From Isurus oxyrinchus (taxonomy: Eukaryota): a stretch of DNA of 64,000 nt. Shown piece after piece: positions 14,221 through 59,175 of this stretch; the first letter of the stretch is position 1; every line of letters starts with the position of its first letter. The notes beneath the pieces are model-generated. The model saw only the letters and a list, made by a program, of their open reading frames with translations. It ran no database searches and was not told where the DNA came from. The stretch spans positions 117,738,001-117,802,000 of the forward strand of contig JANJGN010000013.1 in NCBI GenBank assembly GCA_026770705.1. Reading direction: 5' to 3'. The translations under genes were made by a program, and so were the position numbers.

Positions 14221-16725
14221 TGTGAGATCAGAGGTTGGGAACTTCAACCCCCGACGAACCTCAGACTTTCTGAGCAGGCGCAGGAAAGGAGTGGGCTGCA
14301 CAAGTGCACTTCTATAATTTGTAAATCCTTTGGGCCCAGGACAGGCCCAGTGCACCTGCGCACAAAGAGGAAAAAAAGAAAGAAGGCGTAAAAACCTCGG
14401 TCAGGTGACTGAGTGTGGAGCAAAATGGCTGGCAAGTGACCCAGGCAGGGGACAGGGAGAGGGGAGAGAGGACAGGGAGAAGTCCAAAAGTAAAGTCCCA
14501 AGTAAGGGACAGAGACAGGGGACAGAAACAAGCCCAGTTAAGTTAAGGAAAAAGAAAGGAGCAGAGAAAGAGGCTCTGATTAAAGAAAAGGGTGCAGGTA
14601 GCAGACTTTAAGTGAGGTGGGCTTGGGAGAAGCCCTGGTAATTGAAGAGGGGTCAAGAGAAAGCCTGAAGATCCAAGAAGGCAGCTGAAGGCTGGTGACT
14701 CCTTGCTACAGGCTGGTTGGGCAAAGGTACCTCTTTGGAGTGGTAGAGTTCTGCTCAGTGCAGCCAGAGAGCTGAACTTGTGCTTGTGAGTTGGCGCTTG
14801 AATAAGTACTCAAGAATCCAGGAGAACGGGACACGAGATTGAAACCCAGCAAGGCGGGCCGTTGTTGAAGCCATCCAAGTTGGAGCGACTTTTGGAGAGA
14901 ATTCCAAGGCAAGATCTTCAAAAAGAAGATTGGAATCCCTTGTGTGAGAGATGTAGCTTCAGTGAGATTGGTTGATGCACAGTGTTACTGACATTTGGAT
15001 GGTTTGTTGAAAAATCTGTGGAATCTGTTTTGGTTGCATCTGTCATTTATTGTGCAGTGTGGTGTGTTTGACCACAATTTGCCTGTTGATTCATATGTAC
15101 ATCATATGTAAGATAGATATTGTAAATTACTTTATCTTTCTGACCTTGTCTAGTAAGGAAGACGGGAAATTACAGGCCGATTAGCCTGACCTTGGTCGTT
15201 GCTAAGATTTTAGAGTCCATTATTATGGATGAGATTTCAGAATACTTGGAATGCATGGTAAAATCGGGCAAAGTCAGCATGGTTTCATCAAGGGGAGGTC
15301 ATGCCTGACAAACCTGTTAGAATTCTTTCAGGAGGTAACAAGTAGGTTAGACAAAGGAGAGCCAATGGATGTTATCTACTTGGACTTCCAGAAGGCCTTT
15401 AACAAGGTGCCGCACAGGAGGCTGCTCAGTAAGATAAGAGCCCATGGTATTAGAGGCAAGGTATTAGCATGGATAGAAGATTGGCTGTCTGGCAGGAGGC
15501 AGAGAGTGGGGATAAGGGGGTCCTTCTCAGGATGGCGGCCAGTGACTAGTGGAGTTCCGCAGGGGTCAGTGTTGGGACCACAACTTTTCACTTTATACAT
15601 TAATGATCTAGATGAAGGAACTGAGAGCATCCTGGCTAAGTTTGCAGATGATACAAAGATAGGTGGAGGGACAGGTAGTATTGAGGAGGTGGGGAGGCTG
15701 CAGAAGGATTTGGACAGGTTAGGAGAATGGGCAAAGAAGTGGCAGATGGAATACAACGTGGGGATGTGTGAGGTCATGCACTTTGGTAGGAAGAATAGAG
15801 GCATTGACTATTTTCTCAATGGGGAGAGAATGCAGAAATCTGGAGTGCAAAAGGACTTGGGAGTCCTAGTCCAGGATTCTCTTAAGGTTAACTTGCAGGT
15901 TGAGTAGGTAGTTAGGAAGGCAAATGCAATGTTGGCATTTATTTCGAGAGGGCTAGAATATAAAAGCAGGGATGTGCTGCTGAGGCTTTATAAGGCTCTG
16001 GTCAGACCACATTTAGAATATTAGGAGCGATTTTGGGCCCTGTATCTCAGGAAGGATGTTCTGGCCCTGCAGAGGGTCCAGAGGAGGTTCACGAGAATGA
16101 TCCCAGGAATGAAAGGCTTAACATATGAGGAACTTTTGAGGACCCTGGCTCTATACTCGATGGAGTTTAGAAGGATGAGGGGGAACCTGATTGAAACTTA
16201 CAGAATACTGAAAGGCCTGGATAGAGTGGACGTGGAGAAGATGTCTCCATTAGTAGGAGAGACTAGGACCCAAGGGCACAGCCTCAGAGTAAAGGGAAGA
16301 CCTTTTAGAACAGAGATGAGGAGAAACTTCTTTAGCCAGATATGGTGAATCTATGGAATTCATTGCCACAGAAGGCTGTGGAGGCCAGGTCATTGAGTGT
16401 ATTTAAGACCGAGATAGGTTCTTGATTGGTAAGGTGATCAAAGGTTACGGGGAGAAGGCGGGAGAATGGAGTTGAGAAATTTATCAGCCATGATTGAATG
16501 GCGGAGCAGACTCGATGGGCCGATTGGCCTAATTTCTGCTCCTATGTCTCATGGTCTTATGGTTTACATTTGTTTATTTAAAGCCTGTGGAATCTTTTGG
16601 TTTTCTTTGCTGTGCAAGTGTCTTGAATTTCAAACTTTGTCTACTTTAAATAAAACATTATTGGTCCCTAGCTGACTCTTACCAAAGGCTTGGGGGTCTG
16701 GTCAAGGATCAAAACAAACCTCACA
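14221..16725 (+). mobile_element. probable solo LTR split by a CR1 insertion
   Basis: TGTGAG...CTCACA terminal inverted hexamer; the sequence resumes after the CR1 and carries AATAAA near its end; no TSD found. Confidence 0.45.
15156..16563 (+). mobile_element. 5'-truncated CR1 LINE (RT domain to 3' UTR)
   Basis: QHGFIKGRSCLTNL, YLDFQKAF, SGVPQGSVLGPQLF, KFADDTK; in-frame stops; short tandem 3' tail. Confidence 0.93.
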
Positions 16726-22170: not shown

Positions 22171-22989
22171 ACCAAGGTACCTAATCACCAACATCTAATA
22201 TTCCCTACTCAAGTCTGGTCCTGCCATGATGCGCCAATTGTAGGAGATTCAGCAACCAGACAATAAATCTTAGGCAAGGAGGCACTTGTTGCAGTGGAAC
22301 CAGAACAATTTATTAAGCAACAAAAGCTTTACTTAGCAAGTCAAGGCAATCAGTATCCTAGTTCAGATAGTTTTTTGTTGCCAGAAATAAGATATTGTGG
22401 CTGCTGTAACCTTATAATGAAAATATGTCTGTTAACCGCATTTTTCTAAAATATAGCTGTTTAGGAAATATAAAATACTTTTCCTATGTCAATTCTATTA
22501 TTACTTACGAATTATTCATTGACAGGTAAATTCAGCAGCAGTATACTGGTTCACTATTAAAATAGAGATAAAGTAGTTGATTTTTTTGCATATGCTGTCA
22601 AAAATTGAAATATGTATCATGAAGTGAGCAGGAAATGTTGAGAAATTTGATTGTGTGGCTTGCTTTGTTTGATAACAACTGTGAGGCACATAAAATCACC
22701 TGTCATATTTGATTGCCAAACCTGGGATCTATAGCGCCTGAATTCTTCACAAAAAACAGTTATGGATCAAGAAGGTGATTCAGTCCATTTTAGTTTATCT
22801 ATTCAGAATGACCCTAAGGCCCCCACATTGCAGCATCAATTGCTTCTTGTATTTGTCAGCTTTGCATAATATTCATTAAGTCTGTGATAATTCATTGATT
22901 TACTTTACACTAAAGAAGGAATACCCAGAACAAATGCTTAACTTCATGTAAGTTTTACCTTATTGTTCCATTTCATTCTCTCCCTCTAG

Positions 22990-23622
22990 GTGATGTGATT
23001 GTCTATATAAATGACATCTGTGTCCTAGGATATACTCATGCTGAAGTAGTCAAAATTTTCCAATCTATCCCAATTGGTCAATGTGTCAATCTTGTATTAT
23101 GCCGTGGGTACCTTTTACCCTTTGACCCTGATGATCCAAACAACAGCATGGTGCCTCCGTTAACATTAGTGGACCGACAACCAGTCCAAGTAAATGGGCG
23201 AAATAATTATGACACATATGTGGAGTTTGGTTCCCGGACCTCTCGTTCAGCACCAGACATCTCTGACCAGCATTTACATTCCTTTAATCCAATCCTCACT
23301 GATAGTCAGATGGATGGAACATTATCAGCAGTTCAGGAGGATAGCATCTCTATGGCCTCTTCTGGAGCCACTCAGTGTGAATTCAAGACGATTGCTATTG
23401 TGAAAGGAGCGCAGGGCTTTGGCTTTACCATAGCAGATAGTCCCAAAGGACAGCGAGTGAAACAAATCCTAGATATTCAAGGCTGTGGAGGCCTGAATGA
23501 AGGTGATCTAATCATAGAGATTAATCAGCAAAATGTGCAGACTCTCAGTCATACCCAAGTAGTGGAGATTTTAAAGGAATGTTCTGTTGGAACTGAAATC
23601 AGTTTGGTCATCCAGAGGAGTG
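22990..23622 (+). CDS. MAGI2: MAGI2 large internal exon (end of one PDZ, linker, complete next PDZ)
   Basis: ctctag acceptor, gtaagt donor; (G)DVIVYINDICVLGYTHAEVV...KGAQGFGFTIADSPKGQRVKQILDIQGC...SLVIQRS(G); 633 nt; overlaps ORF 22995..23657. Confidence 0.96.
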
Positions 23623-23779
23623 GTAAGTCAGACTTTTCAAATTTACTTTATTGTTAAAGATGGCAATTAAAAAATATCTTGAGGTGTTTTGATCTGGCTG
23701 ATATTTATTTAATGGTGGTGACTTAAATAAATAACAGTATTATGCAAACATGATAACTTCAACCTAAAATGAACGTATT

Positions 23780-25139: not shown

Positions 25140-25834
25140 TGGCCAGCCAGCATGAAACGTGTGCTAAGAGCCTCCGGGCTGCCAAGGTGGGACAGGAGTA
25201 GTGCAAGTGCTGAAGTCTGTACGTGTGCGGAGGAGCGTGCACTGAAAGCTCCCTGAAGACACAGAGCTGCCTCAGAGAGCTGAAGGATTTTAAATACAAA
25301 AGTAAACATTTTACAAATGATATAAATATTTCCCCACATGTGACTCAGTGACATGAAGAGGGACATGTAAAAACTAATGTTAAAAATTTTTTACACACAA
25401 AAACAAAAAATGCTGGAAAAACTCAGCAGGTCTGACAGCATCTGTGGAGAGAAAGACAGAGTTAACGTTTCAAGTCCATATGACTCTTCTTCAGAGTAAA
25501 AGTGTTTTACATTTTTTTTAGTAACCCTTGGAAACCTCATCCCGCCCATGGATGAGGCTTCATAAAAATACAAAGGACGCCTGGCCTATTGGCTTGCCCA
25601 CCAACCGAAACGTTTGAGCGGGCAGCGAAAAATGCAAATTAATTAATTGCTTAAGGGCCTTAATAGGTCTCTTAATTGTCAGCGGGCACGCTACCGCCTC
25701 TCGTGCACACCCACTGACTGAAAGATTGCAAGGAGTATGCAATAATGCCAGGATGCTCGCCCAATGTCATCGCGCACTATTTCACTCCCGTTTTGGTTGT
25801 GCATGTGCTCGCCCATGGGATGAAAAATTCTGCC
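25140..25834. mobile_element. Harbinger-type MITE carrying a Penelope-tail insertion
   Basis: homologous to 1360-2030; ends AAAATTCTGCCC. Confidence 0.7.
25459..25497 (-). ncRNA. minimal hammerhead ribozyme motif in a ~100-bp Penelope tail fragment (25395-25497)
   Basis: reverse complement reads CUGAAGA-A-GAGUC-auaug-GACUU-GAAA-CG-UU-AACU; the 5' arm of stem I is degenerate or truncated. Confidence 0.6.
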
Positions 25835-32644: not shown

Positions 32645-34345
32645 ACAGAATCACGGAATCACATAGTGCAGAAGAAGCCTTCTGCCCATTGAGTCTGCAC
32701 CAACACGTGACAAACACCTGACCTACCACCTAATCCTATTTACCAGCACTTGGCCCATAGACTTGAATGTTATGACGTGCCAGGTACTTTTTAAAGGATA
32801 TGAGGCAAACCGCCTCCACCACCCTCCGAGGCAGCACATTCCAGACCATCACCACCCTCTGGGTAAAAAAGTTTTTCCTCACACTCCCCCTAAACCTCCT
32901 GCCCCTCAACTTGAACTTATGTCCCCTCATGACTGACCCTTCAACTAAGGGGAACAGCTGCTCCCTATCCACCCTGTCCATGCCTCTCATAATCTTGCAT
33001 ACCTCGATCAGGTCACACCTCAGTCTTCTCTGCTCCAACAAAAACAACCCAAGTCTATCCAATCTCTCTGCATAACTTAAATGTTTCATCCCAGGCAACA
33101 TCCTGGTGAGTCTCCTCTGTACCCCCTCCAGTGCAATCACATCCTTCCTATAATGTGGTGACCAGAACTGCACACAGTACTCCAGCTGTGGCCTCACCAA
33201 GGCTCTATACAATTCCAACATGATCTCCCTACTTTTGTAATCTATGCCTTAATTGTTAAAGGCAAGTGTCTCATATGCCTTTTTCACCACCCCACTAACA
33301 TGCAACTCCGCCTTCAGAGATCTTTGGACACACACACCTAGCTCCCTTTGTTCCTCAGAACTTCCTAGTGTCATGCTGTTCATTGTCAATTTGTCAAATT
33401 ACTCCTTCCAAAGTGTATCACCTCACATTTTTCAGGGTTAAATTCCAACTGCCACTTATCTGCCCATTTGTCCCATCTATATCTTCCTGTAGCCCAAGAC
33501 ACTCAACATCACTGTCAACCACCTGGCCAATCTTTATGTCATCTGCAAACTTACTAATCCTACCCCACACATAGTCATCTATGTCATTTATATAAATGAT
33601 GAATAATAGGGAACCCAGCACAGATCCCTATGGTATGCCACTGGACACTGGCTTCCAGTCACTAAAGCATCCTTCTGTCATCACTCTCTGCCTCCTACAA
33701 CTAAGCCAATTTTGAATCCACCTGATCAAATTACCCTGTCTCCCATGTGCCTTTGCCTTCTTTATAAGTCTCCCATGTGGGACCTTGTCAAAGGCTTTAC
33801 TGAAATCCATATAAACTACATCAACTGCACTGCCCTCTTCTACACATCTGGTCACCTCCTCAAAAAATTCAATCAAATTTGTTAGGCATGACCTCCCTCT
33901 GACAAAGCCATGCTGACTATCCCTGATCAAACCTTGTCTCTCCAAATGGAGATAGACTCTCTCCTTCAGAATTTTCTCCAATAATTTCCCTACCACTGAC
34001 ATGAGACTCACTGGCCTGTAGTTCCCTGGCTTATCTCTACAACCCTTCTTAAATAGCGGAACCTCATTAGCTGTTCTCCAGTCCTCTGGCATCTCCCCCG
34101 TGGCCAGAGAGGAATTAAAAATTTGGGTCAGTGCCCCTGCGATCTCCTCCCTTGCCTCCCTCAGCAGTCCGAGACATAAATCATCCGGACCTGGAGATTT
34201 GTCCACTTTTAAGTCTGCCAACACCTCCAATACCTTGTCACTCCCTATTTCAATTTGCTCACGAGCCTAGCAGTCTCTCTTCCTGAGTTTGATACTTTCA
34301 TCCTCACTCTTTTGGGTGAAGACGGATGTGAAGTACTCATTCAAC
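32645..34345 (-). mobile_element. 5'-truncated CR1 LINE inserted in a MITE (~32410-34830)
   Basis: KSPGPD, GNYRPVSL, QHGFVRGRSCLTNL, KFADD; short tandem 3' tail; flanking MITE ends AAAATTCTGCCC at 34830. Confidence 0.92.
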
Positions 34346-38976: not shown

Positions 38977-39595
38977 CAGACCAGCACCTCGTCTTCTGAT
39001 TAGGCACTTTACAGCCTTCTGGACTTAACATTGAGTTCAACAACTCCAGACCATGAGCCCTCTCCTCCATCCTCATCCCCTTTTTTATCCCCTTTCTCAG
39101 TATTCATTTTTATTTTTTATCCACTTATTTTTATTTTTATTTATTTTCATTTTTATTCATTGTTTTATCCCCACCTTGTATCTTATTTTCAATCTCTCCC
39201 CCACCAACCTCACTTGTTCATGTTGTTCTTTCTAGTGTGCTTACCCTTGTTGTGCTATTATCACATTCTATTTTCTGACCTTAATGCCACCATCAGCACC
39301 TCCTCTAGCCAATGCCACTATCATTAACACCCCTTTATCCTTTTGTCCATGACATCTCTGGCAATCTCTCCAGCTATCACTGGCCTTCTATCCAGCTTCA
39401 CCTACTCCAAACCCCTTAAACAATATAAATTTTATCACATCTTTACTTCTCTCTAGTTCTGAAGAAGAGTCATATGGACTCGAAACATTAACTGTTCTTT
39501 TTCTCCTCACAGATGCTGTTAGACCTACTGAACTTTTCCAGCATTTTCTGTTTTTGTTTCTGATTTTCAGCATCCACAGTATTTTGCTTTTATCT
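38977..39595 (+). mobile_element. older Penelope-like 3' fragment (GIY-YIG end plus pseudo-LTR)
   Basis: QHLVF*LGTLQPSGLNIEFNN matches the C-terminus at ~55720-55791; same 3' tail. Confidence 0.85.
39455..39493 (+). ncRNA. minimal hammerhead ribozyme motif (canonical core, stem III decayed)
   Basis: AGUU-CUGAAGA-A-GAGUC-auaug-GACUC-GAAA-CA-UU-AACU; CG-to-CA change fits CpG decay. Confidence 0.7.
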
Positions 39596-42968: not shown

Positions 42969-43000
42969 GCTTTTTCTCACCCTGGAAGAGTTCAAAACAA
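42969..43000 (+). CDS. MAGI2: MAGI2 32-nt micro-exon
   Basis: ttttacag acceptor, gtaagt donor; (G)FFSPWKSSKQ (mammalian GFFSPWKTPKP as recalled); provides the phase 1 to phase 0 change required by the next exon. Confidence 0.92.
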
Positions 43001-43255
43001 GTAAGTGCTGCCTTTGGTTCCAACAAATGTACTGATGCTGCTTTTAAATCGATCAAGTTTTTATTGTTGAATAAAGGAGAAAGTTGCTAGTATTCTTTAG
43101 AATGTACTTTTCCAGAAAGAAAATAATGTGTTCTTTTGAATGTTCTGTAATTCTAATTACAATAAACCTTGTTCTCATTCATGCAATGAATTTTACGAAA
43201 TCTTAACAGTGCAGATCCTGTGTTATGTATTTGCTAATTTTCCATGGACACCATG

Positions 43256-43373
43256 GGGCAGAATTTTACGTTCCTGTTTCGGCGGGGACAGGGCCACAAA
43301 ATGTGGCAGGCCGTAATAAATCCCATTGACCACAGCGGGAACATAAAATCCTGCTGTTGTAAAATTCTGCCCC
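43256..43373. mobile_element. ~118-bp MITE
   Basis: perfect TIR GGGGCAGAATTTTAC / GTAAAATTCTGCCCC, flanked by AT on both sides. Confidence 0.85.
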
Positions 43374-44249
43374 ATATGTGCACAGAAAAGTTGCTTTTAC
43401 TGGTGCATTTTATTTATAGAATGACATGGGACCTAGTGCTTTAGTTTCACTGTCTATAAAGAGCTCATGTAGCATTAGCTTCAAATGCAATTCATTCAGG
43501 AAAAATATGATTGAAGCGTTTTCTGAAGATTTGACTCCATCCTAAATACCCTTATTAAAATATTTACCAATTTTTTTAATGATAAGTCATCTAGTTGAAT
43601 AGCAGAGCAGGCTCAAGGGGCCTATTTCCTATTTACTAATGATAAAGAAATTAATGATTGTTTCAAATAGATTTTAGATCCAATTGTGTAGTGCTTGCTG
43701 GTGCCAAGAGTCTGCCTGCAGCCCATTCAAATCTGAAAATTATGCCATTGCCACAATTTCACAATACTGAGTGTACAGTTAAGGATGCAAAGTGATTGTT
43801 AAAATTACATGGGAGGCAGAAAGGTTTGTTGCATTATTTCTACCTCAGTAACATTAGTAATTTTGTTTGACGCACATAAGTATACAAAGTAAAATAAAAT
43901 GTAATTATGAAAGAAAGGTAGAAATATATGGTAAATGCTGGAAATGAAGAACAGGTTTAGTAAAAGAGGGTATTCTTGATTTTGAACACCTTTATCAAAT
44001 CTCCCCTTAATCTCTTCTGCTGTAAGGAGAACAACTCCAGCTTCTCTATACATAACTTCTCTAATGACATAACTGAAGTCAACCTGGTACTATTCAATTA
44101 AATCTGTTCTGCAGCCCCTTCCGAGGCCTTGAGATCCTTCCTAAAGTGTGCTACCCAGAAATGAACAGAGTATTCCAGCTGAGATCAAAGCAGTGTTTCA
44201 CAAAGGTTCAGCATTACTTCCTTGTATTCCTCCATTATTAGAGCCGAGG

Positions 44250-44791
44250 ATTTTTTTTCTTTATTCTTGGAAGGTGGGCATCACTGGCAAAGCCAGAATT
44301 TGTTGCCCATCCCTTGAACTCCCTTCCTAATAGCACTGTGGGTGTACCTACACCACATGGACTGCAGCGGTTCAAGAAGGCAGCTTACCATCAGCTTCTC
44401 AAGGGCAACTAGGAATGTGTAATAAATGCCAGCCCAGCCAGCAAAGCCCACATCCCGTGAATGAATAAAAAAATACTGAGCGGCTTGCTAGGCCATTTCA
44501 GAGGGCACGTAAGAGTCAACCACATTGCTGTGGATCTGGTGTCACAGGTAGGCCAGACTGGGAAAGGACAGCAGATTTCCTTCCCTAAAGGATAGTAATG
44601 ATGGGATTTATGACAATTGACAATTGTTGTCATGGTCACCATTACTGAGACTAGCTTTATATTTAGATTTATTAATTGAATTTAAATTCCACCGGCTGCC
44701 GCGGTAGGATTTGAACCTATACCCCCAGAGCATTAGCCAAGGCTTCTGGATTGCTGACTCGGTAATATTACCATATGTCACCATCTCCCCC
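44250..44791 (-). mobile_element. tRNA-headed SINE of the same family, split by a + strand LINE-tail fragment (~44325-44473)
   Basis: B box GGTTCAAATCC at 44707-44717; body GGGAAGGAAATCTGCTGTCC..GGCCTAGCAAGCC shared with 29377-29500. Confidence 0.85.
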
Positions 44792-45517
44792 AATCCAGAT
44801 AAGAAATTTAAAGGGCTCAGACTTGGTACCTATTGGTTACAGTTTATCCTAATTAGGATACAATAATATAGTATTATTAATCAATATTAGCAGTTTACAT
44901 TCCTGAATAGTTGTCACCTCTTCAGTCACTAGACAGAGCAGAGTGTGTCATCTTGTTCTTTAACTAGGTAGGTGTTAGGCTCCACCCACACAAGCCACTT
45001 GTCATCTTCTTGTCTTCTATTTCTATATCTGACTGTCCAAAATCCCTCCTCTTTATTTTCCAAAGTGCCAGTCCTCTGACTCAATAGGGAAGGTTTTAAC
45101 ACATTCAAAACCCATCCACTTACACAGAGTTAAAATTGACCTCGTGGTTTAATTGTTTCTGTTCACGCCAGCTAAACTCTGGTTTTCTGCTTAACCAGCA
45201 TCCTTGTACATAGGCACTTTCTGACCCTACCAACATCTTTCAGAGGTATTCTGCTTTTCTGCATTGTTTGGTGTGGCCCAGCAGTCACCCATTATTACCA
45301 CCATCAGCTTAATTAAGTGCTCTTTTACAGATAATTACAATTACTGATATGGCTCAAAGACACTCCCAGGTTTCTCTGCTCCTGCACCCCCTTTAAAATT
45401 ATTTTATTTCATTCATATTGCTTCACCTCATTCAAAATATGTCACTTCACACTTCTTTGCATTAAGTTTTATCTGCCATGTGTCTGTCCACTTTACCAGT
45501 TTGTCGATGTCCTCCTG

Positions 45518-46159
45518 GGGTTGGATTTTACCGATGCAGTGTTCCCCGCAGCCCCCCAATTAAAAGTCAGTTGGGAGCCCACCCATGAAAAAGGTAGCTG
45601 TTCTGTAGACATTTATGCTCAGCAGGGTTACTAATTGGCTCAGAGCAAGACTTCCGATCAGATTGGCTGGCAGTTCTGTGGTCCCAGCAACGACAGCTTT
45701 GAACAGTGGTCACGGTTGGGACTACAGCCAGCCCCCGAAGAAGAGGAAGTTAAGAAGGCCGGACTGAACATAAGTTCAGGTATCGGCGCCGAGAGGGGTG
45801 AGAGGGTTTGGGGGGCCGGGTTTGAGAGGCTGGTGAGAGGGTAGAGGAGGGGGGTATGACCTTGGGGCTATTGTCTGCAATGGGCACAGGGGACCTCCAA
45901 ATGATGTTTGCTCCCCACCCCCCATGCCTGACACCAACCCAGTGAAAGTTGCTAGCCTACCCATTTGGCACAGGGTTGGGATGAAGCACTTAAGTGGGCA
46001 TTAATTGGCCTCAATAGTCCCAAGGGCTGATGCCTCAACCATGCCCCCAAAAACTTTCAGGTCAGTAGTGGGCGGGATGGCGGCAGGCAAATCACATGGT
46101 GCAATTTACAAGCCCTCCCCTCCTTCAAACATGCCAGCAGAGGTGCATAAATTTAGCCT
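45518..46159. mobile_element. Harbinger-type MITE with CTG target duplication
   Basis: ctg|GGGTTGGATTTT...TAAATTTAGCCT|ctg; interrupts a CR1. Confidence 0.7.
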
Positions 46160-46666
46160 CTGATGCCTGTTGCTATCCTCATTTTTTTGCTACATTTGCA
46201 AGTTTCATATCATCTGCAAACTTTGAAATTCTCCCCAAGTCTAGGTCATTAATCTAGATCAAAATGAGTAGTGGTCCTAATACTGACTCCTGGGAATCAC
46301 CACTATACACTTCCCTTCAGACTGAAAAATACCCTTTCACAACTATCTGCTTTCTACCTCTGAGCCAATTTTGTATTCATGCTGCCCATGTCCCTTTAAT
46401 CCCAAGGACTTTAATTTTGTTAACAAGTCCATTATGTAGCATTTTGATGCAAACACCAGTTAAAAGTCCATTTACACATCAACTGAACTATCCTCATCGA
46501 ACCTCTCTGTTACTTCATCAAAGAACTTGGTCAAGTTTGTCACATAAGATGTGTCTTTAATAAATTTGTGCTGATTTTCATTTATTAGCACATACTTTTC
46601 CAAATACCAATTAATTATAGGAACACAGGGCTAGGAGTAGGCCATTTTCCCTTGCACTTGAATTGC

Positions 46667-47414
46667 TGTTATGACCCAACAGTTGGTAAAGCTGAGTTAT
46701 TTAAAAATCTCAGAGGGAAACTTTAAACAACTGTCATAACCTATATTTTAAGTGGTATGTTTGAGATGCAGCTCTAAATTCAGGAATCAGACCACCAGTT
46801 CCCGAGAGGTTTTTATATTAAACTGAATGAAATATTTTATTAAGTTACAACACATTAAACACATACACATGGCTACAAGTTACTACTATCATAACTTTTA
46901 ACAAATTCCCAGGCTAATCTCCATTAAGGCAACAGCAACCCATAGACTTTACCAGACACCAGGCAAAGCATTTTAACCTTACAAATTCAAAATGAGGTTC
47001 CTCTTACTTTGGTTCCTGTGAAGACAGTTGTAGGCTTACAGCTACTTTGATCTTATATTGTCTGTTATACCCAAAGCAGCTCATTGAATGTAAATTCTCA
47101 TTGTATTACCAGCCTCTTTGAACTCCACCTCTTCTAACAATAAAACCCCTTTCAAAGTACCAATTTTATTAGTAATATAAATATATTGCTTGGTCTCTGC
47201 TAGCTAGGTGCCAGATTTCGCCCCCACTTCTTGAATGCTCTATTCAACAAAATGCAAATGTACCTCTACCTCTCTTACATCTCAAAACTAGTAAACATCA
47301 AATCATCCAGACTAGCTGGCTTTAATCCAATTAAGACACACCCACAGACTAAACCTTTATTTTAAAATAAAAGTATCTTCCAATAACATTCTATACATTA
47401 ATAGTTTCATGACA
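46667..47414. mobile_element. 748-bp solo LTR
   Basis: TGTTATGA...TCATGACA termini; 5-bp TSD ATTGC/ATCGC; splits a CR1 3' end. Confidence 0.8.
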
Positions 47415-50400
47415 ATCGCTACCATTCAGTCATATCATGGCTGATCTGCAACCTAACTTCATAAAACTATCTTTTCTCACTATCTCTTAGCACCTTTGAT
47501 TAACAAAAACCCATTAATCTCAGATTTGAAATTAACAATTGATCTTGCATCAATGCCATTTGCCGAAGAGAGCTCCAAACTTCTACCACCCTTTATGTGT
47601 AGAAGTGTTTTCCAATTGCATTCCTGATAGGTCCTGCTCTAATTTCTAGACTATGCTTCCTAGTCTTATACTTTCCAACCAGCAGAAATAATTTCTCTCT
47701 ATCTACTCTATTTGTTCCCTTTAATATCTTGGAAACTTCAATCAAATCATCCCTTAATCTTTTAAATTCCAGGGAATGCAGCCTAGTTTGTATAATCTCT
47801 CCTAGTAATTTAACCTTTGGAGTCCAGATATTGTTCTAGTAAATCTGCACTGCACTTCCTCCAAGGCGAATATACTCTTCCTAAGGTGTGGTGCCCAGAA
47901 CTGCTCATATGCTACAGATCTCTTTTGTTACCCTGGATTATTGTCTCTAAAAGTTTCGCCAATGGCATTAGGCTGACTGACCTGTAGTTGCTGGGTTTTA
48001 TCTCTTCTTTTTTTCAAACAGGCCCGTGACATTTACAATCCTCCAGTCCCCTGGCACCACCCCATATCCAAGGAGGATTGGAGGACTGTGGCGGAGCCTC
48101 CACAATTTCCACTCTTACTACCCTCAGCAACATAAGGATGCATTCCATCCAAACTGGGTAACTGTTCTACTTTAAGGACCATCAGCATTTTAAGTACATC
48201 CTTTTTACCTATTTTTATCCTTTCATATATCACTACTGCCTCCTCCTTTCCAGCTGCTTTGGCAGCATCCTCTGCTGTAGTAAAGACAGATGCAAAGTGC
48301 TTATTTAGTATCTCACTCATTTCCTCTGCCTCCACTAGAAGGTCTCCTATTCTCAGTATTTATTTTTTTATAATCTACAATTTGACAGTTTTTACAAAAC
48401 ACTAGATTCAGAAACTTCCTGTTCAGTGCTATGTGAGGTGGGCATCCTGTCAAAAATTTGCGCCTATTTTGCAAATTTGCTCATTTAGAATGCAAGTTTA
48501 CCTGATTGTTCTAAAGTGCTGGCTTGTCCTTACTTCTGTTTGAACTGAATTTACCTGTACAATTTAGGATTATTCACCAGTACTAGCACAGGGTCCCCTC
48601 ACTGATCCCTCAGAAAAAAACACAGAATTCAAACATCACCAGAAAGCATCAGAAATTTCAGCTAGATGATTTGATTTTCAACTGGGAGCCAGCAAGAGAG
48701 GAAGTTTCATTCACTTAAGATGAAGCTTCAGAGAGTCGCCAATGAAAATGGGGAACTTGGTCAACTAAGATAAGTTCAGCCTGTGAATAATGAAAGAGAG
48801 ATCTTTGTCTAGTGGGAAGCCTGTAGATGTGCTGAGTAAGGGAGAGGTAGGTAAGTGTGGCCAAGAGAGAAAAATAAATATAGCCAGTGAGGAGGAAAGG
48901 AGTAAATTGACAAGGTCAGAAGGAGATAGATAAATGTGTCCAGCTCCAAGTGAGATGGGCAGTGAATTTACTCAGTAGGAAAACATATGTTATGGGATCT
49001 CACCACCAACCTTTTCTTTGCTAGTACTGATTGTCAAGTCTGTTCTTTTGAAACAGAATATAAATTTGGAAAAGCCTAAGGCACTTTTGTCTTGGACTTT
49101 TCCTGGTTTATCCTATAATTTTCTATTAAAATGCACTCATAAGGTAGAGAATTAGAGAGAGTGAGGGAGAGTTGAAACAGCATGATGGGGCTAAGTTCAG
49201 ATGCAGAAGTTCAACATACAGGAGGAAGAGAGAGAAAAGTTTAGAAGATAGAGAAATTTGGATGCCAAGATAAGTCAGGAAAATTGGCAGTGAAAGAAAT
49301 AGAATGAAGTTTATATACACAGTGAGAGAGAGGATCAGTCAAATGCACAGGAAGTATTATATATGAGAAAACAACAGTGAACATGAGCTAGAGATTGATT
49401 TTGCTCATTTATTTCTCGTGAGTGAATTACCAACATGGATATGTTTACAAAGCATAAAATAAAATAATTTTCTTCCATAGCTTCAGGATTTTGCCCCAGC
49501 CTACTATGGCACCTGTTACAGCACATTAAAGCTTACCTGGTCTTCCAGATTGCAGATGGACTGAATTTGCAAACCCTAGCATTACTATTCAGCTGGATAA
49601 ACCAAAACTGACTCTAAAGGCTAGTTTTGATTCCACCAGAGAGGATGAAGAAGGGAATATTTGCATTTATTTGCTTTAAAAGGTTAGGACTGCCTAAACT
49701 GTTAGCATAGTGACAACAATGCAAATCTGTGATTTTTTTAGTGACATAGTTATCTTGGAAGATTTATGTTAATGCTATAATCATCTATACAGTCATTCCC
49801 CTGTTACATATCCAGATAATAAATTTGGTTATATTAGTTATTTTTACTTTATAAAAACAGAAATTTCTGATCACACTGCCTCTTCAAATTAATTCAAATT
49901 TGTTACACTGTGTTAAAGTAAAGCATCAAAACCCCAATTTTACATTTGCACTGGTACCAACTTCTTATGGCATTGATAGTGCTGAAATAGTGTTTAATGC
50001 AGACACAAAAAAATTGGTTACAAGCAGGATATTATGTTTAATGCTTTGAGGAGGACAGAGCTTTTATACTGAATGTCAATTGTCACTCCTGGTGCTATTA
50101 ATTATACATATTAAACATTTTTAAAATTGTATAATTGATGACCTCAGGAGTAACAATTAATGTTTCTACTAACTATGTAAATAAGAAAACACAGCACCAA
50201 AGAATTTAAAAAGGAAAAGCAAGTCCTGGTCAAAACACAAAACCTTTAGGGAATGGTCACTCAACTGCCAATGCTCTTGATTTTTTTCCCCCCAGTGCTG
50301 TTAAATAAAATGGCAGTTACACGCGGCAGTGTGCCTGAAACCACATTATCTGGGAATTTAAATATTTAAAAGACGGCACAGACTAATATTGCCCATACTG

Positions 50401-50827
50401 ATATGAAATTATAATTTTTTACCATCACACAGAGACAGGCTTTTTTCAGTCAGTGAGCGTAGGGCCTGGTATTGCATATAACTTGTAGCCCAGCCACATT
50501 ATTTTCAAATCTATTTCCTCAAGATTTTCTAATATGTTGTATTGGAAATTTCCAACCTATTAAAATAGTTGTACAGTGAGAAGACCACGTAAGGTCTCTA
50601 TAGATTGTTAGCTTGTTGAATATCTTGCATATAATTATTCTACAGTATAACAGTTACAAAAAATGCATTTTGGTGTGCTACATACTCGATTATAACTTAA
50701 ATTTACAATGCTTTTAGCAAGGCATTTCATTGTATTCAATCATAAAGAGAAAATATTTAATTAAAAACAAAAACAGAATTACCTGGAAAAACTCAGCAGA
50801 TTTGGCAGCATCGGCGGAGAAGAAAAG

Positions 50828-50866
50828 AGTTGACGTTTCGAGTCCTCGTGACCCTTCAAGAGAACT
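50828..50866 (-). ncRNA. minimal hammerhead motif, probably inactive (G5C)
   Basis: reverse complement reads AGUU-CUCUUGA-A-GGGUC-acgag-GACUC-GAAA-CG-UC-AACU. Confidence 0.6.
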
Positions 50867-52920
50867 GAGTGAATCTTAGGAAAGGGGTGAAATATAAACT
50901 GGTTTAAGGTTGGTGGGGGGGAGAGAAGTGGTGGGGGGATGGTGTGGTTATAGGGACAAGCAAGCAGTGATAAGAGCTGATAATCAAAAGATGTCACAGA
51001 CAAAAGAACACAGAGGCATTGATGGTGGTGATATTATCTAAACAAATGTGCTAATTAAGAATGGATAGTAGGGCACTCAAGGTACAACTCTAGTGGGGGT
51101 GGGTTGGAAAGGCTTGCAGGGCATAAAAAATTTAAAAATAATGGAAATAGGTGGGAAAAGAAAAATCTATATAAATTATTGGAAAAAACAAAAGGAAGAG
51201 GGGAAGAAACAAAAAGGGGTGGGGATGGAGGAAGGAGTTCAAGATCTAAAGTTGTTGAATTCAATATTCAGTCCGGGAGGCTGTAAAGTGCCTAGTCGGA
51301 AGATGAGGTGCTGTTCCTCCAGTTTGTGTTGGGTTTCACTGGAACAATGCAGCAAGCCAAGGACAGACATGTGAGCAAGAGAGCAGGGTGGAATGTTAAA
51401 ATGGCAAGCGACAGGGAGGTTTGGGTCATTCTTGCGGACAGACCGCTGGTGTTCTGCAAAGTGGTCGCCCAGTTTCCGTTTGGTCTCTCCAATGTAGAGG
51501 AGACCACATTGGGAGCAACGAATGCAGTAGACTAAGTTGGGGGAAATGCAAGTGAAATGCTGCTTCACTTGAAAGGAGTGTTTGGGCCCTTGGACGGTGA
51601 GGAGAGAGGAAGTGAAGGGGCAGGTGTTGCATCTTTTGCGTGGGCATGGGGAGGTGCCATAGGTGGGGGTTGAGTAGTAGGGGGTGATGGAGGAGTGGAC
51701 CAGGATGTCCCGGAGAGAACGATCCCTATGGAATGCCGCCGGGGGGGTGAAGGGAAGATGTGTTTGGTGGTGGCATCATGCTGGAGTTGGCGGAAATGGC
51801 GGCAGATGATCCTTTGAATGCAGAGGCTGGTGGGGTGATAAGTGAGGACAAGGGGGATGCTATCATGTTTCTGGGAGGGAGGAGAAGGCGTGAGGGCGGA
51901 TGCACGGGAGATGGGCCGGACACGGTTGAGGGTCCTGTCAACGACCGTGGGTGGAAAACCTCGGTAAAGGAAGAAGGAGGACATGTCAGACGAACTGTTT
52001 TTGAAGATAGCATCATCAGAACAGATGCGACGGAGACGGAGGAACTGAGAAAATGGAATGAAGTCCTTACAGGAAGCGGTGTGTGAGGGGCTGTAGTCAA
52101 GGTAGCTGTGGGAGTCGGTAGGCTTGTAATGGATATGGGTGGACAGTCAATCACCAGAGATTGAGACAGAGAGGTCAAGAAAGGGCAGGGAAGTGTCAGA
52201 GATGGACCATGTGAAAATGATGGAGGGATGGAGATTGGAAGCAAAATTAATAAATTTTTCCAAGTCCTGACGAGAGCATGAAGCAGCACCGAAGTAATCA
52301 TCGATGTACTGGAGAAAGAGTTGTGGAAGGGGGCCGGAGTAGGACTGGAACAAGGAATCTCCGACAAAATGTCGTTTGCCATTTTAACACTCCACCCTGC
52401 TCTTGCCCACATGTCTGTCCTTGGCTTGCTGCATTGCTCCAGAGAAGCCCAACGCAAAGTGGAGGAACAGCACCTCATCTTCCGACTAGGCACTTTACAG
52501 CCTTCCGGTCTGAATATTGAATTCAACAACTTTAGGTCTTGACCTCCCTCCTCCATCCCCACCCCTTTTCTGTTTCTTCCCCCTTCCTTTTGTTTTTTCC
52601 AATAATTTATATAGATTTTTCTTTTCCCACCTATTTCCATTATTTTTAAATCTTTTATGCCCTGCTAGCCTTTCCACCCCACCCCAACTAGAGCTGTACC
52701 TTGTGTGCCCTACCATCCATTCTTAATTAGCACATTCATTTAGATAATATCACCACCATCAACGCCTCTTTGTTCTTTTGTTCTTTTGTCTGTGACATCT
52801 TTTGATTATCTGCTCCTATTACTGCTTGCTTGTCCGTACAACCACACCACCCCCACCATTTCCCACCCCCCCCCCAACCTTAAACCAGCTTATATTTCAC
52901 CCCTTTCCTAAGATTCACTC

Positions 52921-52959
52921 AGTTCTGTTGAAGGGTCATGAGGATTCGAAACGTCAACT
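52921..52959 (+). ncRNA. minimal type I hammerhead ribozyme motif in the upstream pseudo-LTR
   Basis: AGUU-CUGUUGA-A-GGGUC-augag-GAUUC-GAAA-CG-UC-AACU; predicted cleavage after GUC at 52955. Confidence 0.72.
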
Positions 52960-53084
52960 CTTCTCCGCCGATGCTGCCAGACCTGCTGAGTTTTCCCAGG
53001 TAATTCTGTTTTTGTTTTGGATTTCCAGCATCCGCAGGTTTTTTTTCTCTCTTTGTTTAATTGACTGGCACTCCTCTTCAACTA

Positions 53085-55791
53085 ATGTCTGTTCCTCTCT
53101 GCGTCAAGATTTCCGTATCTCTCTGTTGCCTTGTTCATCTTCATTGCTTTCTGTTTCTCTCCTGGTGTTTGACAAGGTGTTTACTAAAAGCCGCTTTCAC
53201 AACCAAACCTCCTTTCTTAGGGACTGTCTCTGTCTCTGACTTATCCCACGTGGATTTCAACTGAAATTCCATCCCTCTTGTTTCGAACCCACCCAGGATT
53301 ACAGGTATCTCCGGGACATAAAACGTTTCTCGGACTGCTGTTCCCGTCACATTCTGAGATCCACACTCAGTGCCATGCGCCGCCATATGAACACACTCGA
53401 CCTCTCCCTCCAGCAGCACCACCGCACCCTTTTTCAAAGCTGTGCGTGCCCCCAGTTTCATTTTATTCTTCATCTCATCCGACGCCTCAACAAGAAACTT
53501 TTTCTCTTTCTCTCAAGTGCTAAGGAACGCAAGCTCCAACAACTCATCGACACCAACACCCATCTAGGATCCTCCACCCCTGCCTGTCCCTCCGTCCCCA
53601 CCCCATCTTCCAATCCCAGCCCCGGCCGAGTATTCACTATACCCCCTGAACTTTCCCTGTCCGATGCTAAACGTTCAGTGCTCAGCAAAGGACTTAGTTT
53701 CATACCCTTAAGCCCTCATCTCAATGAATTTCGGGCTCGGCACAATGCTGAACTCTTCTTCCACCGTCTTCGTCTCCGTGCTCACTTCTTTGGGCAGGAG
53801 TCCTCTCCCCGTTCAATGGATCCTTTTACCCACCTCCAATATTCTCCCTCCACCTGGACCCCTCCCTCTGGATTCTTAGCTTCTCTTGATCTTTACATTG
53901 AGAACTGTCGGCACGACATTAGTCGTCTCAATTTCTCTGCTCCTCTCACCCATTCTAATCTGTCTCTCTCTGAACTTACTGCACTCCGTTCTCTCATGTC
54001 CAACCCCAACATTGTCATCAAACCCGCTGACAAGGCTGGTGCTGTTGTTGTCTGGCGCACTGACCTCTACCTCGCGGAGGCTGAGCGTCAACTCGCAGAC
54101 ACTTCCTCCTCCCTCTCCCTGGACCATGAACCCACCACTGAACATCAAGCCATTGTTTCCAGGATTGTCACTGCCTCATCTCCTCTAGAGATCTTCCTTC
54201 CACAGCTTCCAATCTGATCGTCACCCAACCTCGGTCGGCCCGCTTCTACCTCCTACCCAAAATCCACAAACTGAACTGTCCCGGTAGACCAATTGTGTCA
54301 GCCTGCTCCTGCCCCACGAACTAATTTCTCGTTATCTTGACTCCCTTCTCTCTCCCCTTGTCCAGTCCCTTCCTCTGACACTTTACTTCACATCAACAAT
54401 TTCCAGTTCCCTGGCCCCAACCGCTTCCTCTTCACGATGGACGTCCAATCCCTCTACACCTCCATCCCCCACCAGGATGGTCTGAGGGCCCTTAGCTTCT
54501 TCCTCGAACAGAGGTACAAACAATCCCCATCCACCACTACTCTGCTCCGTCTGGCTGAACTTATTCTCACACTGAACAATTTCTCCTTCAACTCCTCCCA
54601 CTTCCTCCAACTAAAAGGTGTGGCTATGGGTACCCGCATGGGCCTCAGCTATGCCTGTCTCTTTATGGGGTATGTGGAACATTCCTTGTTCCAGTCCTAC
54701 TCTGGCCCCCTTCCACAACTCTTTCTCCGATACATCGATGATTACTTCGGTGCTGCTTCATGCTCTCGTCGGGACTTGGAAAAATTTATTAATTTTGCTT
54801 CCAATCTCCACCCCTTCAACATTTTCACATGGTCCATCTCTGACACTTCCCTTCCCTTCCTTGACCTCTCTGTCTTAATCTCTGGTGATAGACTGTCCAC
54901 CAATATCCATTACAAGCCTACCGACTCCCACAGCTACCTCGACTACAGCTCCTCACACACCGCTTCCTGTAAGGACTCCATTCCATTCTCTCAGTTCCTT
55001 AGCCTCCGTTGCATCTGTTCTGATGATGCTACCTTCAAAAACAGTTCGTCTGACATGTCCTCCTTCTTCCTTTACCGAGGTTTTCCACCCACGGTCGTTG
55101 ACAGGACCCTCAACCGTGTCCGGCCCATCTCCCGTGCATCCGCCCTCACACCTTCTCCTCCCTCCCAGAAACATGATAGGGTCCCCCTTGTCCTCACTTA
55201 TCACCCCACCAGCCTCTGCATTCAAAGGATCATCCTTCGCCAACTCCAGCATGATGCCACCACCAAACACATCTTCCCTTCACCCCCCCGGCGGCATTCC
55301 ATAGGGATCGTTCCCTCCGGGACATCCTGGTCCACTCCTCCATCACCCCCTACTCCTCAACCCCCACCTATGGCACCTCCCCATGCCCACGCAAAAGATG
55401 CAACACCTGCCCCTTCACTTCCTCTCTCCTCACCGTCCAAGGGCCCAAACACTCCTTTCAAGTGAAGCAGCATTTCACTTGCATTTCCCCCAACTTAGTC
55501 TACTGCATTCATTGCTCCCAATGCGGTCTCCTCTACATTGGAGAGACCAAACAGAAACTGGGCGACCACTTTGCAGAACACCAGCGGTCTGTCCGCAAGA
55601 ATGACCCAAACCTCCCTGTCGCTTGCCATTTTAACATTCCACCCTGTTCTCTTGCCCACATGTCTGTCCTTGGCTTGCTGCATTGTTCCAGTGAAGCCCA
55701 ACGCAAACTGGAGGAACAACACCTCATCTTCCGACTAGGCACTTTACAGCCTTCCGGACTGAATATTGAATTCAACAACTTTAGATCTTGA
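53085..55791 (+). pseudogene. Penelope RT plus GIY-YIG endonuclease ORF, disrupted by a stop and several frameshifts
   Basis: pieces 53375-54217, 54437-55465 and 55462-55791; TGA at 53237-53239; start position approximate. Confidence 0.9.
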
Positions 55792-56159
55792 ACTCCTTCC
55801 TCCATCCCCACCCCCTTTCTGTTTCTTCCCCCTTCCTTTTGTTTTTTCCAATAATTTATATAGATTTTTCTTTTCCCACCTATTTCCATTATTTTTAAAT
55901 TTTTTATGCCCTGCTAGCCTTTCCACCCCACCCCCACTAGAGCTGTACCTTGAGTGCCCTACTATCCATTCTTAATTAGCACATTTGCTTAGATAATATC
56001 GTCACCATCAACACCTCTGTGTTCTTTTGTCTGTGACATCTTTTGATTATCAGCTCCTATCACTGCTTGCTTGTCCCTACAACCCCACCCCCCCCACCCC
56101 CACCCCACCCCACTTCCCCTAAACCAGCTTATATTTCACCCCTTTCCTAAGATTCACTC

Positions 56160-56198
56160 AGTTCTGTTGAAGGGTCATGAGGACTCGAAACGTCAACT
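56160..56198 (+). ncRNA. minimal type I hammerhead ribozyme motif in the terminal pseudo-LTR
   Basis: AGUU-CUGUUGA-A-GGGUC-augag-GACUC-GAAA-CG-UC-AACU; predicted cleavage after GUC at 56194. Confidence 0.75.
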
Positions 56199-56450
56199 CT
56201 TTTCTTCTCCGCCAATGCTGCCAGACCTGCTGAGTTTTTCCAGGTAATTCTGTTTTTGTTTTGGATTTCCAGCATCCACAGTTTTTTGTTTTCATTAACT
56301 TTATTTTGTAAGAAAGTATATTTGCATTTCCTGTTTACAGCAAATAGTGCAATGGACCTAAGATATGCACATGGAAGTCCATATCAATATCTTTTATATA
56401 TTGGACTGTATTCTTCACAGGATCAGTCAAGTGTTAGCAAAGAAAATAAA

Positions 56451-57100
56451 GGGCTGAATTCTCCGGTTGGTGAGCGGCGGCAGGGCCCGCTCACCAGCGC
56501 ATAAAATGACGCATGGTGACATCGGATGGGCGACCCGGCGTCATTGCACATCATTTAGATTTCCTGTTCGGCGGGCACTCAGCTGAGTCAGCTGCGCACC
56601 CGCTGAACTGTCAAAGGCCTATTAAGGCCTGGTAAAAACTAATTTAAGTAACTAAATGAGCTGCCTGTCCAACCTTAAGGTTGGCGGGCTTGCGAAGAGC
56701 CCAGGCGGCCTTCACATTTTTCATGAAACCTCATCCAAGGGTGGGATGAGGTTTCATGAAGTATTTTAAGATTCAGTAAAAATTTTTAAAATAATTCTTT
56801 GACATGTCCCAGCTCATGTGATAGTGTCACATGAGGTGACATGTTTTAAAAGTTTTTAATTACTTTATTTCAGTTTTTAAATATCAAACTGATCTCCCTG
56901 AGGCACCTCTGTGCCTCAGAGAGATTTCTGCACCCGCGAAAGAGTGCTGGCCCCGACTCAGGGAATCCCCCCCCCCCACCACTCAGAAAGCGTCCAGCAC
57001 TTCTGAGCAAGCATCATGCTGGGCAGGCCTTAATTGGTCCACCCACGTAAAATGGCAGCCCGACCCTGCACAAACCCCCAACAGGGGGAAAACTTTCCCC
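56451..57100. mobile_element. full MITE copy, opposite orientation to 1360-2030
   Basis: GGGCTGAATTCT...AAAACTTTCCCC; AAA on both sides; perfect internal 17-bp hairpin at 56720-56760. Confidence 0.82.
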
Positions 57101-57404
57101 AAAATTACTCATTTATATCAAAAATCAAAAAGACACTACTTCCAGTTATTAACTTAGCTCAAAGGCACAATGCCAATTGATTTACTTTTAAGCTTCAAGA
57201 CTGCACCAGCTTTGCGATCGTTCACACAATGCCTGACTGTCACATGGAGATGTCCTTCAAAGGTCGGACATGTCACACAAAGAGGGAGCAAAGGAAAAGG
57301 ACTCAGGCTTAATGTCAACTTAGGTCTGGACTGCTCTATCACATCACCAGAGACCCAGAAAGTAGCTTGCCCCAAGCTTAAGATTTGGGAAGTGGAAATA
57401 TAAT

Positions 57405-58270
57405 AACAAAATTTGCAGATGACACCAAATTGGGAATACAGTTCAGTTAATGCTGAAGAAGACTATTACAAAATACAAGATGATGATGCAGAATGCCCAC
57501 GTAAATGACAAAAGAACTTCAAGATAGAGAATTGTGCAGTGTTACATTTTTTTACAAGGAATAATGAGGCCACCTACTCCTTGGAAGTTAAGAATCTAAA
57601 TGGGATAGAGGCGCAAAGGAATCTACTGGTACAGATTCATAAATCATTAAAAGGGGCAACGCAGGTTTACAAAGCATTAAGAAGTGCATTTGGGTTCACT
57701 TCTAGAGGAATAGAATTCAGAAGCAGAGAAATATTTAAATGAAAACTTACATGAAACCTTGCTTTAGAGTGCACTTGGAGAACTGGGCCCAGTGGCCTTC
57801 TTATTACAAAAAGCATATTGAAGCACCGGTGATAAAGCGTAAAGGGTACAGCCATCGGGAAAGACTGAACAAGTTTGGGAAAAGAGAAAACTGAGATGTT
57901 GCCTAATAAAGACCTTTAAAATAATGATGAGGTTTCATCGGGTAAATATTAAGATGTTTCCACTTGTGGGGAGTCCAAAACTAGGGGCCTTTGATATCAA
58001 ATAGTCACTGATAAATTCAATAAGGACTTCAGGAGAGACATCTTTACTCAGAGAGTGATGAGAATGTAAAATTTACTACCACATGGAGTGGTTGAGGAAA
58101 ACAGCATTGATGCATTTAAGAGGATGCAAGGTAAGTATATAGGAGAGAAAGGAATAAGAGGGTGTGTTGATCAGGTAAGATAAAGTAAGTTGGCAGGAGC
58201 TTCATGTAGTCTATAGATACCCACACGTCTGTTGGGCTGTATGTCCTATTTCTGTGTTGTAAAATTCTAT
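57405..58270 (+). mobile_element. highly decayed CR1 fragment
   Basis: aaatttgcagatgacacc (KFADDT) and CR1-type 3' region. Confidence 0.75.
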
Positions 58271-58421
58271 GCAAATGATTTAACTTGAACAAGGTAGTTG
58301 GGATGCCTGACATCATTGAACCATGTGCCAGCAAGACTCTGTATCCAATTTGGAAGAAAATAGAGTAGGAGCAGTTTAAACATAAGCTGCAATTTTTTAA
58401 ACATGTTTTTATTTGTTTCAG

Positions 58422-58611
58422 ACTTTAGATAGATGGGAAAATCAGGGCAGCCCTCAGGCAAACTTCTCAGCACAGCACCTACCACAGAGTCTCCCCTTCC
58501 CACCTAATGTCCACAGAGCTTCTTTTCCTGACTCTTCTGAAGGATTTGATCAAAGGAAACCTGATCCGTATGAAGTGTATGAGAAGTCAAGAGCTATCTA
58601 TGAGAGTAGGC
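58422..58611 (+). CDS. MAGI2: MAGI2 internal exon (inter-PDZ linker)
   Basis: tttcag acceptor, gtaagt donor; TLDRWENQGSPQANFSAQHLPQSLPFPPNVHRASFPDSSEGFDQRKPDPYEVYEKSRAIYESR. Confidence 0.95.
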
Positions 58612-59175
58612 GTAAGTAAAATCCTTGCCTTTTTCCCCCGCTGGAAAAATAGCTTTTAATGACTGACTCCCAGCTGTTTGACCACCCCTGATAACATTTT
58701 CTGTTGTCATATCTTCTTTAAATGGAGTAGACATACAATAACCTTTAAGAATTCAATTGATCTGCTGTCTGATGTACAATAACATATTTATGCAGCACAA
58801 CAATTTGTATACTAATCTATTTCTTGACCAACTATCAACAAATGCACTGTGTCCTTTGAAAACAATGATGTAAAAGTAAGGTATTCCATTTTAATTATTA
58901 ACTTTACAATTATTATAAATGACAGAAATGTCAGAATCTTTTTATGAACCATCAGTATAGATGTATTGAACCATTTTCATAATATCTGAGTAGAGTGTAG
59001 AATAATTTTCTTACAAGCAGTGCACTGATACATTTAGCAGCTCTTCCTGAACAATTTCTAAATAGTCCTCTGATGGTTAAAACTAATGCAGAGGGATGCT
59101 TGAGTAACTATTGGCAACATGAAGTGTCTCTACGTGAATGCATAGTTTTGCTTAATTCCACGTTTTCCTGTACAG

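Follow-up and report, generated by a model that had tools for sequence, protein, structure and literature searches.

Minimal hammerhead ribozymes have been described in both pseudo-LTRs of metazoan Penelope-like elements (PLEs), about 3 kb apart, and excision and circularisation by such ribozyme pairs was already proposed in 2014 (Cervera and De la Peña, 2014; PMC4209133). A PLE within the MAGI2 gene of the shark Isurus oxyrinchus raises the question of whether a host pre-mRNA could serve as the substrate of such a pair. In the window (the whole 64,000-nt stretch analysed, positions 117,738,001 to 117,802,000 of contig JANJGN010000013.1), the initial annotation reported a complete Penelope ORF bracketed by two hammerheads, and suggested that MAGI2 read-through could release the entire RT/GIY-YIG unit and cut the intron. 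The idea of excision and a circle is thus not new in itself, and the anatomy is that of a textbook Penelope in a dead copy.

MAGI2 occupies the plus strand, where shark MAGI2a proteins match the exon at 22980-23624 with 97-99% identity, and its exons are spread over about 927 kb of one contig. These protein matches uphold the co-orientation of both motifs with the MAGI2 sense strand. The element sits inside the intron at 43001-58421 (15.4 kb; borders from splice signals). Its parts and the flanking exons are as follows:

42969-43000, plus strand: MAGI2 micro-exon 5′ of the host intron (AG/GT borders; weak tblastn overlap)
50764-52366, minus strand: inverted 5′-truncated copy with RT end, endonuclease, 3′ UTR, damaged motif and short tail (95% identity over 1604 nt to 54673-56262)
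About 50827-50865, minus strand: third, damaged motif within the inverted copy, core CUCUUGA
52370-53049, plus strand: upstream pseudo-LTR, 680 nt, 5′-truncated, with ORF end, 3′ UTR, motif and tail (39 mismatches in 668 aligned nt and 5 indels against 55617-56293)
52921-52959, plus strand: minimal hammerhead-like motif 1; core position 6 is U, and stem II has one additional G-U; cut predicted at 52955/52956
53066-55791, plus strand: broken RT and GIY-YIG reading frame, judged against intact copies (start lost, stop at codon 58, five deletions)
55617-56293, plus strand: downstream pseudo-LTR with the conserved tail at its end (tail pattern with 78,929 exact genomic matches)
56160-56198, plus strand: minimal hammerhead-like motif 2; core position 6 is U; cut predicted at 56194/56195
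58422-58611, plus strand: MAGI2 exon 3′ of the host intron (tblastn 94%; contig match 58422-58611)

The contig matching from 58422 onward comes from a run whose RNA status is guessed, as it mostly is across the RNA evidence base of 21 runs, all of them assembled contigs. Penelope-family sequence occurs in three runs of guessed RNA status, in contigs carrying neither a locus assignment nor RNA ends. An 81-nt AT-rich hairpin at 50078-50158, with 38-nt arms 76% complementary, is probably a small DNA-transposon relic; compared with Rfam, it gave miRNA matches at chance level only. Just 3′ of the element, a repeat at 56420-57100 contains a 27-nt internal inverted repeat (56710-56770) and has high depth in one DNA run. 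RT-encoding LINE-type fragments also lie in MAGI2 introns at 15233-15907 (plus strand) and 32736-34266 (minus strand), and from their resemblance we take them to be CR1/L2-like.

The full unit ends at 56293, 3′ of the inverted copy and the upstream pseudo-LTR. EN+ PLEs, as defined here, form partial tandems, often with an adjacent inverted 5′-truncated copy (PMC8557442), and the locus has this layout, with its pseudo-LTR partial tandem and adjoining inverted truncated copy. The ORF, taken at first to be complete, is broken. The genome holds copies with 918 open codons; compared with two of these, the window copy is 94% identical, has no ATG, and is interrupted by a TGA at 53237 (codon 58). It has also suffered deletions at 54174 (1 nt), 54318 (1 nt), 54370 (19 nt), 55236 (9 nt), and 55289 (1 nt), four of the five not being multiples of three. 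An autonomous copy is expected to keep an uninterrupted ORF with a start codon, and this copy has neither. Pfam recognised a weak RVT_1 match in one of five pieces of the window ORF and nothing else. In an intact relative (94% alike in DNA), RVT_1 was found at E 6e-8, while GIY-YIG, at E 0.2, is sub-threshold in Pfam; the relative carries the DKG, YIDD, VY..YIG, and CCHH motifs and a C-X4-C-X2-C linker at residue 784 of 918. Its single ORF thus contains RT followed by a C-terminal GIY-YIG with CCHH, the arrangement of EN+ PLEs.

In Neptune and Nematis, a CX2-5CxxC linker precedes GIY-YIG, whereas Penelope and Poseidon are described without it (PMC8557442). The CX4CxxC linker of the intact relative, which agrees with the former pair and departs from the latter, points to Neptune or Nematis rather than Poseidon, judged from sequence. 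The C-terminal EN+ PLEs described by Craig et al. (2021; PMC8557442) share the order of RT, linker Zn motif, GIY-YIG, and CCHH, and Neptune and Nematis likewise show a tandem, an inverted truncated copy, and a tail; the window copy differs in being broken, and its clade is suggested by the linker. Elsewhere in the genome, two loci (L012-L014 and L341-L343) hold head-to-tail triples of the full 3.3-kb unit, whose junction is identical to that of a circle and would confound divergent RT-PCR. On another contig (C2:106598000-106618000; L136, L137), a 4.5-kb unit is repeated at least four times, each repeat carrying an old A6 and a young U6 motif on opposite strands, which looks like a local tandem duplication.

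Both motifs were re-read from the sequence as AGUU-CUGUUGA-A-GGGUC-AUGAG-GA(U/C)UC-GAAA-CG-UC-AACU, in which stem I has 4 bp and stem II 5 bp, the palindrome is ACGU, and the triplet is GUC; their predicted cuts span 3239 nt. The first description of the motifs was accurate in position, stems, triplet, palindrome, and spacing, and in assigning minimal type I hammerhead-like motifs to both pseudo-LTRs of a Penelope-like element; it mentioned neither the U at core position 6 nor the inverted copy with its third, damaged motif. A generic minimal-hammerhead descriptor matched 20 times in the 664 kb of MAGI2 scanned, five shuffles gave no match, and a 35-nt motif pattern has 68,545 exact matches in the 4.98-Gb genome, as against none for its reversed control. 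The motifs are thus not chance occurrences. An Rfam search over 50000-59000 at E<=10 returned no hammerhead family match. As in the published minimal hammerheads, both motifs combine a short stem I, an extra nucleotide after A9 and before stem II, a G10.1-C11.1 stem II, GAAA, palindromic positions 15.2-16.2, an NUH triplet, and no stem III loop (PMC4209133). The published core is CUGANGA, whereas both window cores read CUGUUGA. Since this defining core position differs, the sequence places the motifs as a variant derived from minimal hammerheads. The same holds for 18 of the 20 complete motifs in the MAGI2 scan, which carry U6, so that descriptors demanding CUGANGA would miss most hammerhead-like motifs of the shark Penelope family. 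In Figure S3 of the 2014 study, A6 stands in 56/56 rows, none from a cartilaginous fish (PMC4209133). The shark family, at 68,545 exact motif matches, also compares with about 4,000 copies in coelacanth and about 9,000 in Xenopus, counts made with that study's own descriptor and not directly comparable (PMC4209133).

Within the family's own motif context, A6 gives 98 matches as against 68,545 with any base, the two patterns differing at one further position, and among 34 young copies anchored at the ORF, U6 is present in 33 and G in one. Related older subfamilies retain A6 (6,301 exact matches), and an intermediate subfamily combines U6 with the older stem II (5,595 matches). A flank-anchored sample of the transitional subfamily is mixed, with U6 in 23/30, A6 in 6/30, and C6 in 1/30. 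Older, decayed lineage members with the canonical A6 core (CUGAAGA) lie in the same MAGI2 region at 39447-39593 (plus strand) and about 25397-25495 (minus strand). A tree of 48 hand-picked copies, built from flanks without the motif, is ladder-like: CUGAAGA is followed by CUGAUGA, and this by CUGUUGA and CUGUCGA. It is rooted at the midpoint, beyond which lie the most diverged A6 copies. The U6 copies fall into a strongly supported group at whose base two A6 copies branch, and the AU test does not reject a single origin (p 0.278). Decay of a CpG in the window copy was ruled out as the source of U6-U7, as older subfamilies have U7 and the youngest C7. On this sequence comparison, A6U arose within the shark Penelope lineage, and it is found in copies with intact ORFs.

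Changes at position 6 are known from other hammerheads. At 0.3 mM Mg2+, A6C brought kobs down from 0.30 to 3.6e-6 per min; at 1 mM Mg2+ the rate came back to 0.067, and Mn2+ largely rescued it (PMC7151607). An A6C hammerhead is elsewhere reported at under 0.1 per min (PMC3088659), and a mutational scan showed CUGA mutants to be of low activity (PMC9901934). The phage Bcep176 hammerhead, a natural A6C, shares the position-6 substitution with the shark motif, but is one sequence from a phage, in which position 6 is C and stem III is complete, whereas the shark motif is minimal and U6 is fixed in tens of thousands of copies (PMC3088659, PMC7151607). The literature searched yielded no A6U rate for a minimal dimer and no report of an A6U, CUGUUGA, or CUGUCGA variant of the Penelope hammerhead. 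Lunse et al. 2017, which lay outside that search, may list position-6 variants or shark motifs, and is said to cover about 150,000 PLE-linked hammerhead variants. A 2026 preprint on related retrozymes takes in one chondrichthyan genome (10.64898/2026.07.22.740005).

Whether the motif remained under constraint after A6U was assessed by comparing majority letters between 24 old and 34 young U6 copies from flank- and ORF-anchored samples, the old set leaving out 6 A6 copies of 30 and the UTR columns using the 13 old rows that were long enough. The core changed at 0/10 positions, the palindrome at 0/2, and the stems at 1/18 (1/30 in total), the sole stem change turning A-U into G-U and keeping the pair. 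Position 17 shifted from U to C, which leaves the triplet an allowed one. By comparison, 4/8 free positions of the motif changed (p 0.004), as did 54/286 UTR columns (p 0.019 against core and stems), while the tail, at 7/73 columns, does not differ significantly from core and stems (p 0.26). The expectation that core and stems would be better conserved than their flanks therefore holds against the UTR and the free positions and fails against the tail: the motif stayed constrained after A6U, though no more so than the tail.

If cut RNA were the template, copies would be expected to begin at the cut. In a tail-anchored sample (the first 100 copies on contig C1, with starts visible only to +19 past the cut), 97/100 start at least 4 nt upstream of the cut, 1/100 within 3 nt on either side, and 2/100 downstream. 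An ORF-start-anchored sample of 89 distinct copies (90 fetched of 3,543; a few long rows are misaligned, and all reach past the motif) gave 72/89 starts more than 5 nt upstream of the upstream cut and 1/89 within 5 nt of it, with six at the same motif edge. Junctions exactly at the cut outnumber those at a single control position, 6 nt upstream, by about two to one (12/30 sampled from 922 against 12/30 sampled from 436); fewer than 1% of copies are involved, and 11 of the 12 resemble fold-backs. Nearly all tail-anchored copies run through the cut site, yet a re-ligated circle would leave intact sites too and is compatible with this pattern. Starts are concentrated instead at the 5′ edge of the motif, with 26/100 of the tail-anchored starts at -40 to -31 against 17 in the flanking 40 nt. 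Nineteen of these 26 are fold-back junctions, whose arms are not independent; the non-fold-back starts number 7 against 9 (P 0.008). The edge pile-up fits a transcription start and an RT stall alike. Copy 5′ ends crowd this edge family-wide, as at L419, L425, L484, and L494. In older subfamilies and in the window copy, the edge reads pyrimidine-pyrimidine-A-G-T-T, which we take to be initiator-like and a hint of a transcription start.

The setting in MAGI2 bears on what a host transcript could do. The genome-wide exact matches (motif 68,545, tail 78,929, ORF start 3,543) have 64 family counterparts in the 664 kb of MAGI2 scanned (of about 927 kb), 30 sense and 34 antisense; no orientation bias appears in these 664 kb, where inverted pairs largely force parity. 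There are 14 U6 insertions in the scanned part, 12 of which have a sense motif, and 11 of those 12 have an antisense copy 0.1-3.7 kb upstream. In the window, the duplex of the inverted copy with each 39-mer motif is predicted at -66.5 and -68.8 kcal/mol, against -7.7 kcal/mol for the dimer secondary structure, and stems I and II have a predicted pair probability of at most 0.01 within 60 nt of context on either side; these are nearest-neighbour predictions that consider neither tertiary contacts, proteins, nor folding kinetics. Transcription reaches the inverted copy first, and this copy is predicted to tie up one motif of the pair that a dimer requires.

With a probability of roughly 0.8, we read the locus as an inverted-plus-tandem, broken copy of an abundant shark Penelope-like retrotransposon, whose motifs are the family's standard end motif and which likely undergoes no excision from host RNA here. 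Active copies would be transcribed from a promoter in their own pseudo-LTR, as is known for Drosophila Penelope, with the transcription start, or an RT stall, probably at the 5′ edge of the motif. Reverse transcription would begin in the downstream tail and copy the uncut motif. A6U would render self-cleavage slow or dependent on protein, with selection maintaining the fold. In the MAGI2 pre-mRNA, the inverted copy, made first, is predicted to pair with the upstream pseudo-LTR and leave the cis dimer without a partner, and no helper protein should come in cis from the dead ORF. Motif 2 could find its partner in another copy, in trans.

This reading is challenged by the constraint itself, since invariance of core and stems after A6U is the pattern that a still-cleaving ribozyme would show. 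It is conceivable, though we give it clearly less than even odds, that the U6 motif cleaves during the family's life cycle with an element protein bound, so that cleavage reduces active tandems to unit length, perhaps followed by circularisation, while dead copies in introns stay mostly silent. The contrast between 1/30 changes in core and stems and 4/8 and 54/286 at free positions and in the UTR fits this possibility, as does the roughly twofold junction excess at the cut over one control. The Anolis Poseidon element PAc offers a precedent: its hammerhead is reported to need the element protein for cleavage and to be dispensable for insertion in vitro, with no RNA-seq reads described as ending at the cut site (Frangieh et al., 2024; PMC11167929). 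Like the shark motif, that of PAc lies in the pseudo-LTR upstream of the tail, with uncut RNA as the apparent template, but it overlaps the ORF start (PMC11167929), whereas the shark motif lies about 175 nt before the ATG; Poseidon also lacks the linker motif that the shark element has. Against cleavage with bound protein, the tail is similarly conserved, so that the constraint could stem from a role in promoter function or protein binding, 5′ ends do not pile up at the cut, and changes at position 6 are strongly deleterious in other hammerheads. A promoter or RT-binding role leads to a further reading, which we regard as rather unlikely, that the motif has been a catalytically dead relic since A6U, conserved through overlapping DNA promoter or RT-binding signals and not through its RNA fold. 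The crowding of 5′ ends at the motif edge (26 starts within 10 nt, compared with 17 across the 40 nt on its flanks) is what a transcription start would give, the tail is conserved equally, and Naiad PLEs are described as reaching high copy number without canonical hammerheads (PMC8557442). A relic is harder to reconcile with the placement of the changes since A6U, which fall at positions that are free in hammerheads (4/8 against 1/30) and, in the one affected stem, keep the pair.

Excision driven by the host, in which the MAGI2 pre-mRNA pairs the motifs, frees the 3239-nt and possibly circular RT/GIY-YIG RNA, and cuts the intron, we consider very improbable. The co-oriented motifs are 3239 nt apart in what is the only one of the 14 U6 insertions in the 664 kb with two sense motifs, and schistosome dimer and trimer constructs cleave weakly in vitro (PMC4209133). 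Nevertheless, the ORF that would be released is dead, the orientation of the family in MAGI2 is at chance level, the inverted copy upstream is predicted to outcompete the dimer, A6U alters the core, and genomic copies read through the cut site; a promoter of the element's own is likely as well, given the internal promoter in the pseudo-LTR of Drosophila Penelope (PMC2377424). The proposal of the initial annotation on this point is therefore not sustained.

What hammerheads do for PLEs is a standing question in the literature (PMC8557442, PMC11167929). In the shark lineage, a core position that hardly ever varies became fixed for a different base; the rest of the motif was retained, and the lineage went on to multiply into tens of thousands of copies, among which intact ORFs persist. 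As a tentative and on balance doubtful proposal, the family may have evolved a protein-gated hammerhead: A6U would make the motif nearly silent as naked RNA, so that intronic copies are harmless to host transcripts, and the element protein would rescue cleavage in the RNP. If this is true, the switch precedes the family's largest expansion, and the A6 and U6 subfamilies within one genome would constitute a natural experiment on the purpose of the Penelope hammerhead. Natural A6 and U6 versions, found side by side, make the choice between catalyst and structural signal directly testable.
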